Notes: generated by a model from the letters alone, not told the origin. A stretch of DNA of 64,000 nucleotides from Escherichia coli (GCF_003334785.1 NZ_QOWV01000004.1); one strand, 5' to 3'; shown: positions 11,155 through 11,270, counted from the first letter of the stretch. Program-made: numbers and translations.

Positions 11155-11270
11155 TTCTCCCTCTCCCTTCCAGGGAGAGGGTCGGGGTGAGGGTAATTTT
11201 TCGCACCGATGCTGGCCTGTTCCCCTCACCCTAACCCTCTCCCCAAACGGGGCGAGGGGACTGACCGAGT
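11155..11270. repeat. GC-rich composite palindromic repeat (ccctctccc-ttcca-gggagaggg; ggggtgaggg...cccctcaccc; ccctctcccc...ggggcgagggg)
   Basis: Several nested inverted repeats read directly between alx and sstT; family name not certain. Confidence 0.6.

Follow-up and report, generated by a model that had tools for sequence, protein, structure and literature searches.

Palindromes between alx and sstT of Escherichia coli are an inverted pair of the catalogued BoxC/PIT/TMECO repeat and vary among strains

Palindromic sequences between alx and sstT

In the window (the whole stretch of E. coli DNA analysed, 64,000 nucleotides), alx and sstT lie in the same orientation, and the spacer between them contains three GC-rich palindromic pieces at the positions that the initial annotation gave (Table 1). 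The repeat search returned a perfect 10-nt hairpin (11159-11168/11172-11181) and an inverted repeat of 24 nt with 88% complementarity (11173-11196/11220-11243). No feature is annotated within this spacer in RefSeq K-12. A 76-aa ORF on the minus strand (11059-11289) spans the whole repeat in the ORF list, and it probably arose because the GC-rich repeat contains few stop codons.

A long composite stem-loop, which had been suggested for these palindromes, is possible, with a predicted energy of -62.4 kcal/mol for 11159-11260. Positions 11140-11290 folded as RNA far better than shuffled sequences on both strands (plus strand, -68.6 kcal/mol and z -4.53; minus strand, -73.8 kcal/mol and z -5.12), and positions 11147-11291 gave a z of -4.81 when folded as DNA. 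No shuffle was as good in any of the three comparisons.

Table 1. Features of the alx–sstT region in window coordinates
Feature	Position	Strand	Basis or remark
alx coding sequence	10140-11105	+	ORF list; RefSeq annotation of identical DNA
Left flank of the composite, GCACCGTTTTCT, conserved 5' flank of the type B unit	11147-11158	+	Semi-conserved at paralogous copies
Type B unit, TMECO no. 12	11159-11194	+	Exact consensus match; Watson-Crick hairpin dG -18.4 kcal/mol
Parts of the type B unit: C-block; loop TTCCA; G-block 1; loop TCG; G-block 2	11159-11167; 11168-11172; 11173-11181; 11182-11184; 11185-11193		
Palindromic piece CCCTCTCCC-TTCCA-GGGAGAGGG	11159-11181	+	Sequence read
Direct copies of CCCTCTCCC	11159-11167 and 11235-11243	+	End points of the 76-bp deletion allele
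GGGGTGAGGG, complementary to CCCCTCACCC	11184-11193 and 11222-11231		Sequence read
Spacer between the units, AATTTTTCGCACCGATGCTGGCCTGTT	11195-11221	+	Homologous at ygfF-gcvP, fepB-entC, and gldA-yijF
Type A unit with one mismatched triplet, TMECO no. 13	11222-11258	-	Exact consensus match; hairpin dG -18.5 kcal/mol
Palindromic piece CCCTCTCCCC-AAAC-GGGGCGAGGGG	11235-11259	+	Sequence read
Right flank of the composite, ending with conserved TTGTCATC	11259-11291	+	Shared with paralogous copies
Small hairpin GGGACT-GACCG-AGTCC; T6 run	11257-11272; 11273-11278		In the right-flank region
Second terminator-like hairpin AAGCC-GCACGTT-GGCTT, followed by TATTTTTA	11297-11315	+	Terminator search; -7.5 kcal/mol
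sstT-proximal intergenic DNA, context outside the repeat	11318-11503	+	Almost invariant in four aligned alleles
sstT coding sequence	11504-12748	+	ORF list; RefSeq annotation of identical DNA

Identification of the repeat family

The initial annotation had recognized a dispersed enterobacterial intergenic repeat and left its family unnamed. The family is the one known as BoxC, the PIT element, or the TMECO triplex motif, and the alx–sstT palindromes are two inverted copies of it. The TMECO consensus is 5'-CCCTCNCCC N3-6 GGGNGAGGG N3 GGGNGAGGG-3' (Holder et al. 2015, NAR 43:10126, PMC4666352). Exact matches to this consensus were found twice in the window, at 11159-11193 (plus strand) and 11223-11258 (minus strand), while 0.00 were expected from 100 shuffles.

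Window positions were converted to MG1655 coordinates by an offset of +3,228,440, obtained from sstT (11504 = 3,239,944) and alx (10140 = 3,238,580). Table 1 of Holder et al. lists TMECO no. 12 (CCCTCTCCCTTCCAGGGAGAGGGTCGGGGTGAGGGT, type B) at 3,239,599-3,239,634 on the plus strand and TMECO no. 13 (CCCTCGCCCCGTTTGGGGAGAGGGTTAGGGTGAGGGG, type A with one mismatched triplet) at 3,239,698-3,239,662 on the minus strand (PMC4666352). The two units in the window are these two entries, identical in letters and in K-12 coordinates. Compared with nos. 12 and 13 of K-12 MG1655 (36 nt, type B, TCG loop; 37 nt, type A "mm", TTA loop), the sequences, coordinates, inverted A+B pairing, and strain instability were the same, and no difference was observed in the element itself. 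Five K-12 sites carry two motifs in inverted orientation, always a type A with a type B, and the pair 12+13 is named among them; the paired type B units have a CCG-type second loop and the type A units a TTA second loop (PMC4666352). The same pairing was found at alx–sstT, where the plus-strand unit has the loop TCG (type B according to the authors) and the minus-strand unit the loop TTA (type A).

According to PMC4666352, TMECO received its first description under the name BoxC (Bachellier et al., 1990s) and was later found again as the PIT (potential intrastrand triplex) element (Hoyne et al. 2000; Hoyne and Maher 2002), and the equivalence of BoxC and PIT with TMECO is taken from that text. 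BoxC is a known E. coli stem-loop family, for which 32 copies of 56 bp were reported and 22 copies of 50 bp were detected (PMC2267715). BoxC and PIT elements are likewise GC-rich, intergenic, and palindromic, with copies in the tens, and the alx–sstT copy is intergenic and belongs to a multi-copy set.

The initial annotation had also set the palindromes apart from canonical REP, and this distinction held. REP/BIME identity was rejected, as neither strand of 11100-11340 contained the core GCCGGATG or its complement, although 20 cores were present elsewhere in the window. REP/BIME (PU) elements resemble the alx–sstT pair in being dispersed, intergenic, GC-rich palindromes, often found as inverted pairs in 3' UTRs, where they can stabilize upstream mRNA. 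In contrast, the pair had no match to the naRNA4/REP model, and its three-block purine/pyrimidine mirror design is absent from REP, which is mobilized by the RAYT transposase family. A true REP/BIME cluster is present in the window as a contrast to the BoxC pair; it matched naRNA4 (RF02564) above the gathering score at 2861-2942 and 2961-3042 (minus strand), with GCCGGATG cores at 2887, 2987, and 3087. ERIC/IRU elements and the Correia (NEMIS) MITEs of Neisseria are also short, non-coding, multi-copy, palindromic, and strain-polymorphic, but for the BoxC composite neither significant terminal inverted repeats beyond the motifs nor a consistent target duplication were found.

An Rfam scan had been proposed as a check, and it did not find a curated RNA family at the palindrome; Rfam has no model for BoxC. 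The gathering-threshold scan of the whole window gave no match there, and the E-value scan of 9500-12000 with Rfam 15 gave only sub-threshold microRNA and frameshift-element matches, at least ~20 bits below the gathering score. The microRNA-like matches on the palindrome were rejected as chance matches to GC-rich hairpins. Elsewhere in the window, RNase P RNA (RF00010, 318.6 bits) was found at the rnpB gene, 41663-42039 (minus strand).

Architecture of the composite repeat

In each unit, a C-block is followed by a G-block complementary to it and by a second G-block that mirrors the first; thus, a single strand can form a Watson-Crick hairpin and, in vitro as published, an intrastrand purine-motif triplex. 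Read on the minus strand, the type A unit is CCCTCGCCCC-GTTT-GGGGAGAGGG-TTA-GGGTGAGGGG. The commonest type in the family has a G-A mismatch in the stem (PMC4666352). The two units stand head to head and form an imperfect palindrome of ~100 bp.

BLAST matches at other loci started at 11147 or 11153 and covered 11147-11290 at 83-86% identity, so that the motifs are only part of the repeated unit, a composite of ~145 bp (11147-11291). The inverted pairs at ygfF-gcvP, fepB-entC, and hrpB-mrcB of K-12 were aligned together with the gldA-yijF pair, which is absent from K-12. Outside the motifs, the aligned pairs shared the left flank GCACnGTTTTCT, the spacer TAAnnnTTCGCnCCnGnGCTGGCCTGTT, and the right flank GACnGnnnGAGCnCTTTT..TTGTCAT. 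As the spacer is homologous at three of these loci (Table 1), the pair is copied as one unit.

The left flank was semi-conserved at ygfF-gcvP, gldA-yijF, fepB-entC, hrpB-mrcB, and phnL-phnK. Beyond 12 nt, the left flanks showed no significant similarity at most loci, and a longer shared left flank reaching up to the alx stop codon was unsupported, except between ygfF-gcvP and gldA-yijF. The similarity of the right flank was significant for ygfF-gcvP and gldA-yijF (z of 6.8 and 8.5, respectively), and that to the gldA-yijF copy seems, by eye, to reach ~11311. The second terminator-like hairpin lies just beyond the 145-bp core and still within the strain-variable zone. At lldD-trmL and phnL-phnK, the order of the two units is reversed, and each has a flank of its own. 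The phnL-phnK pair (minus-strand A followed by plus-strand B) was observed between these phn operon genes in some strains, such as E. coli AF57.

Copy number and distribution

When 11140-11290 was compared by BLAST with 5,426 complete E. coli genomes, every genome was matched, at 1-26 places and a median of 14, and the expectation of a multi-copy element was borne out. The element was neither unique in its genome nor comparable to shuffled sequence in its folding. The composite recurs at ygfF-gcvP, fepB-entC, hrpB-mrcB, and gldA-yijF, and it adjoins unrelated genes in other orientations, with copies located ahead of genes, between divergently oriented genes, and within operons such as phnL-phnK.

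Representative genomes scanned for the exact pattern contained at least 120 stretches, often as inverted pairs; among the matches listed were Contendobacter, Polaromonas, Mitsuaria, Hyphomicrobiales, Myxococcales, and Bacteroidaceae assemblies. A broad bacterial distribution of the motif was reported earlier (PMC4666352). In the metagenome-assembled genome JANYBJ01 (isolate GL140_5), the core was found within a longer high-copy repeat with ~30 conserved nt on each side and two flank variants, and this repeat looks like a MITE-type element built around the core.

The composite query matched 464 of 72,556 plasmid records, including Klebsiella (111), Rhizobium (86), Sinorhizobium (64), and Azospirillum (43); megaplasmids and mislabelled chromosomes are also among these records. 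For plasmids, the earlier claim that mobile elements do not carry the motif therefore holds only approximately. Of the phage records, only 3 of 50,697 were matched.

Allelic variation at alx–sstT and other loci

Alleles were classed from a 1.3-kb query across the spacer, for which 39 rows were sampled evenly down the ranking; three span classes were distinguished, and representatives were aligned. At least 95% identity to a 151-nt query, read as the full pair, was observed in 2,584 of the 5,426 genomes (~48%), and the full-pair class made up 19 of the 39 sampled rows, including the window, K-12, E. coli C, and O157:H7.

The short allele (e.g., strain N64) lacked exactly 76 bp between the copies of CCCTCTCCC at 11159 and 11235. 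It retained the hairpin CCCTCTCCCC-AAAA-GGGGCGAGGGG and both flanks of the composite. Approximately 8 of the 39 sampled rows carried this allele, and it represents most of the genomes with neither the full pair nor the replacement described below, a share estimated from evenly spaced rows and by subtraction. Because the outer flanks of both units (left of B, right of A) are kept, the short allele appears to derive from the full composite by deletion, the retained flanks being the one argument for this direction of change. The short-allele lineage has diverged (~97% identity over 1.3 kb), and the allele may therefore go back to one ancient deletion and not to frequent deletion.

In the replacement allele (e.g., ET776 and SCU-316), an unrelated GC-rich sequence was present from the last alx codons to ~11317. 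It includes a dispersed repeat of ~285 bp, which was found at full length in 1,660 of the 5,426 genomes (~31%), at a median of 3 places per genome. Its copies are ~88% identical to one another, and a K-12-like one is located near 2,228,500-2,228,800. The ~285-bp repeat gave no Rfam match. The last two Alx codons and the stop codon (11094-11105) were GGT GGA TAA in the window, GTA GAA TAA in N64, and GGA GAA TGA in ET776. As the last Alx codons differ between alleles, the variable zone begins inside the end of the coding sequence. The 186 bp proximal to sstT (~11318 to the ATG) were almost identical across the four aligned alleles.

Structural differences among strains were also observed at other loci. 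At hrpB-mrcB, a 64-bp collapse between GGGAGAGGG repeats was found in strain RM6927 and a 102-bp absence with imprecise edges in strain M160133. At fepB-entC, a 186-bp segment was missing in approximately half of the genomes, with a 3-bp TAA overlap at its bounds. The ygfF-gcvP pair is located at the edge of an indel that removes ygfF, and homology resumes just past the composite end TTTGTCATCTGA. This behaviour is in line with the strain-to-strain instability, including deletions that leave a hairpin, and the "palindrome effect" described by Holder et al. (PMC4666352).

Mobility of the composite

The polymorphism could alternatively reflect insertion and loss, with the ~145-bp composite being a non-autonomous, MITE-like mobile element that inserts as a unit. 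The variable number of places per genome is consistent with this, and so are loci filled in some strains only (gldA-yijF, and fepB-entC with its 186-bp presence/absence and TAA overlap), the copying of spacer and flanks together with the pair, the occurrence of the core inside longer high-copy repeats in other bacteria, and the matched plasmid records. However, terminal inverted repeats beyond the TMs did not reach significance when flank was compared with flank (z at most 2), and an apparent inverted repeat at fepB-entC (ATTCG..AAGCGCA) was rejected, as its z was only 1.9. No consistent target-site duplication was found, the "empty" hrpB-mrcB allele resembles an imprecise deletion, the left-flank boundaries vary by locus, and the composite is nearly absent from phages. 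We know of no candidate transposase for BoxC. Holder et al. reported no association with transposons (PMC4666352). A MITE-like mobile element is considered rather unlikely. A more speculative proposal, which we regard as doubtful, is that the spreading unit is a composite of ~145-190 bp (B unit, spacer, A unit, and flanks) moved by an enzyme or host factor that recognizes the three-block core; if true, this would also explain the letter-for-letter conservation of the core in distant bacteria.

Transcription termination downstream of alx

The initial annotation had proposed that the palindromes act as the alx terminator or as an sstT leader element, and neither role was borne out by the analysis. 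As a terminator or a 3'-UTR stabilizer of alx, the composite would insulate sstT from alx read-through, its stable hairpins and the downstream T6 stopping RNA polymerase or blocking 3' exonucleases. Its position fits this reading, as it begins 54 nt past the alx stop codon, on the transcribed strand and ahead of the co-directional sstT, and a terminator-like site was called at 11254-11276. Local substitutions have created GGGACU-GACCG-AGUCC followed by U6 in the alx–sstT copy only, the structure being absent in the paralogues. Retention of a hairpin and of the T-run in the 76-bp deletion allele would likewise be consistent with selection for a terminator.

Several observations stand against this role. 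Rho-independent terminators likewise combine a GC-rich hairpin past a stop codon with a neighbouring T-run, but the T-run of the BoxC pair is not contiguous with its strong hairpins, and the element is also present ahead of genes, between divergently oriented genes, and within operons. Neither motif hairpin runs directly into a U-tract; the T6 lies 14 nt beyond the last strong TM hairpin (-18.4 and -18.5 kcal/mol for the two), and the hairpin adjoining it is weak (6 bp, -7.5 kcal/mol including the tail), with a 5' arm that overlaps and competes with the TM-A stem. Approximately half of the genomes have no intact pair, and the genomes with the replacement repeat (~31%) do not have the element at all. 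The hairpin at 11297-11315 is an alternative candidate for the alx terminator just downstream. None of the 33 consensus pairs carried a compensatory change among the five composite copies, whose stems are invariant, and the power of this comparison is low with five sequences. In earlier assays cited by Holder et al., PIT elements acted neither as promoters nor as terminators (PMC4666352).

The Term-seq tables of Adams et al. 2021 contain no 3' end within 3,239,600-3,239,799 (PMC7815308). This negative result is weak, because alx is attenuated in its leader and little transcription would reach the alx end under the conditions used. Strong 3' ends are present in these tables in the alx leader, at 3,238,482 (window 10042), 98 nt before alx, and at 3,239,923, 21 nt before sstT (PMC7815308). 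The main text of Adams et al. mentions neither alx nor sstT (PMC7815308). On balance, termination or stabilization of the alx transcript by the composite is judged quite unlikely, and the same holds for the more modest idea that the alx–sstT copy was co-opted as the alx terminator through the substitutions creating GGGACU..AGUCC and U6.

The Rfam search of the alx leader (9840-10160, plus strand) gave no yybP-ykoY manganese riboswitch match even at E up to 10. This leader has been assigned to that riboswitch class.

Triplex formation and regulation of sstT

A further alternative is that intrastrand DNA triplexes or H-DNA arise from the units in vivo and give them their effect, for instance through replication pausing or through recombination seeding that supplies adaptive variation. 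Both units have the mirror symmetry required, as GGGAGAGGG read antiparallel against GGGTGAGGG gives 7 G·G:C, 1 A·A:T, and 1 T·A:T triads. Consensus oligonucleotides form triplexes by CD and NMR and cause a polymerase stop in vitro, and TM loci vary more than control loci (PMC4666352). However, double-stranded TMECO was a duplex and not a triplex, with no protection in in vivo DMS footprinting (PMC4666352), and the deletions are equally explained by ordinary hairpin-assisted slippage between direct repeats. Action through triplexes in the cell is considered improbable.

A part in the sstT leader or promoter region regulating sstT is very hard to credit: the element lies upstream of sstT on the same strand, and the 3' end 21 nt upstream of sstT (PMC7815308) suggests a regulated sstT 5' UTR, but the pair ends ~245 nt before the ATG, the sstT-proximal 186 bp stay constant in the four aligned alleles while the repeat zone is deleted or swapped, the same composite stands beside unrelated genes in other orientations, and Holder et al. 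saw the motif linked neither to gene class nor to distance (PMC4666352). The 3' end itself corresponds to window 11483 (plus strand), within the allele-constant part of the spacer, and suggests premature termination or processing in the sstT 5' UTR.

Biological interpretation

The alx–sstT palindromes are most probably a known, structure-prone, and unstable dispersed repeat with no locus-specific regulatory role, whose main effect is local instability. On single-stranded DNA, a hairpin or cruciform in the ~100-bp imperfect palindrome would bring the 9-bp direct repeats together, and the juxtaposed copies of CCCTCTCCC could then undergo slipped-strand deletion of 76 bp; we infer this slippage from the deletion end points. 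Larger exchanges between strains would replace the whole segment. If alx reads through, the repeat would form a very stable 3'-UTR hairpin in the RNA, which might incidentally slow 3' exonucleases, as REP does.

The absence of a function is argued from silence, and a literature search found no later functional work on TMECO or PIT. As far as the aligned copies indicate, the conservation is that of a repeat and not of a selected fold, while the exact conservation of the core across distant bacteria would be hard to explain for a purely neutral sequence.

The alx–sstT pair was already known to the exact copy, catalogued since 2015 and its family since the 1990s, and the identification therefore matters little as a discovery. 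Its value is for annotation: as RefSeq K-12 has no feature and Rfam no model for them, such repeats are repeatedly flagged anew as possible regulators. What is new here comprises the allele frequencies in 5,426 genomes, the precise limits of the 76-bp deletion, and the ~145-bp composite with its co-copied spacer and flanks. In natural strains, the allele series at alx–sstT neatly illustrates a deletion that is associated with a hairpin and bounded by 9-bp direct repeats.
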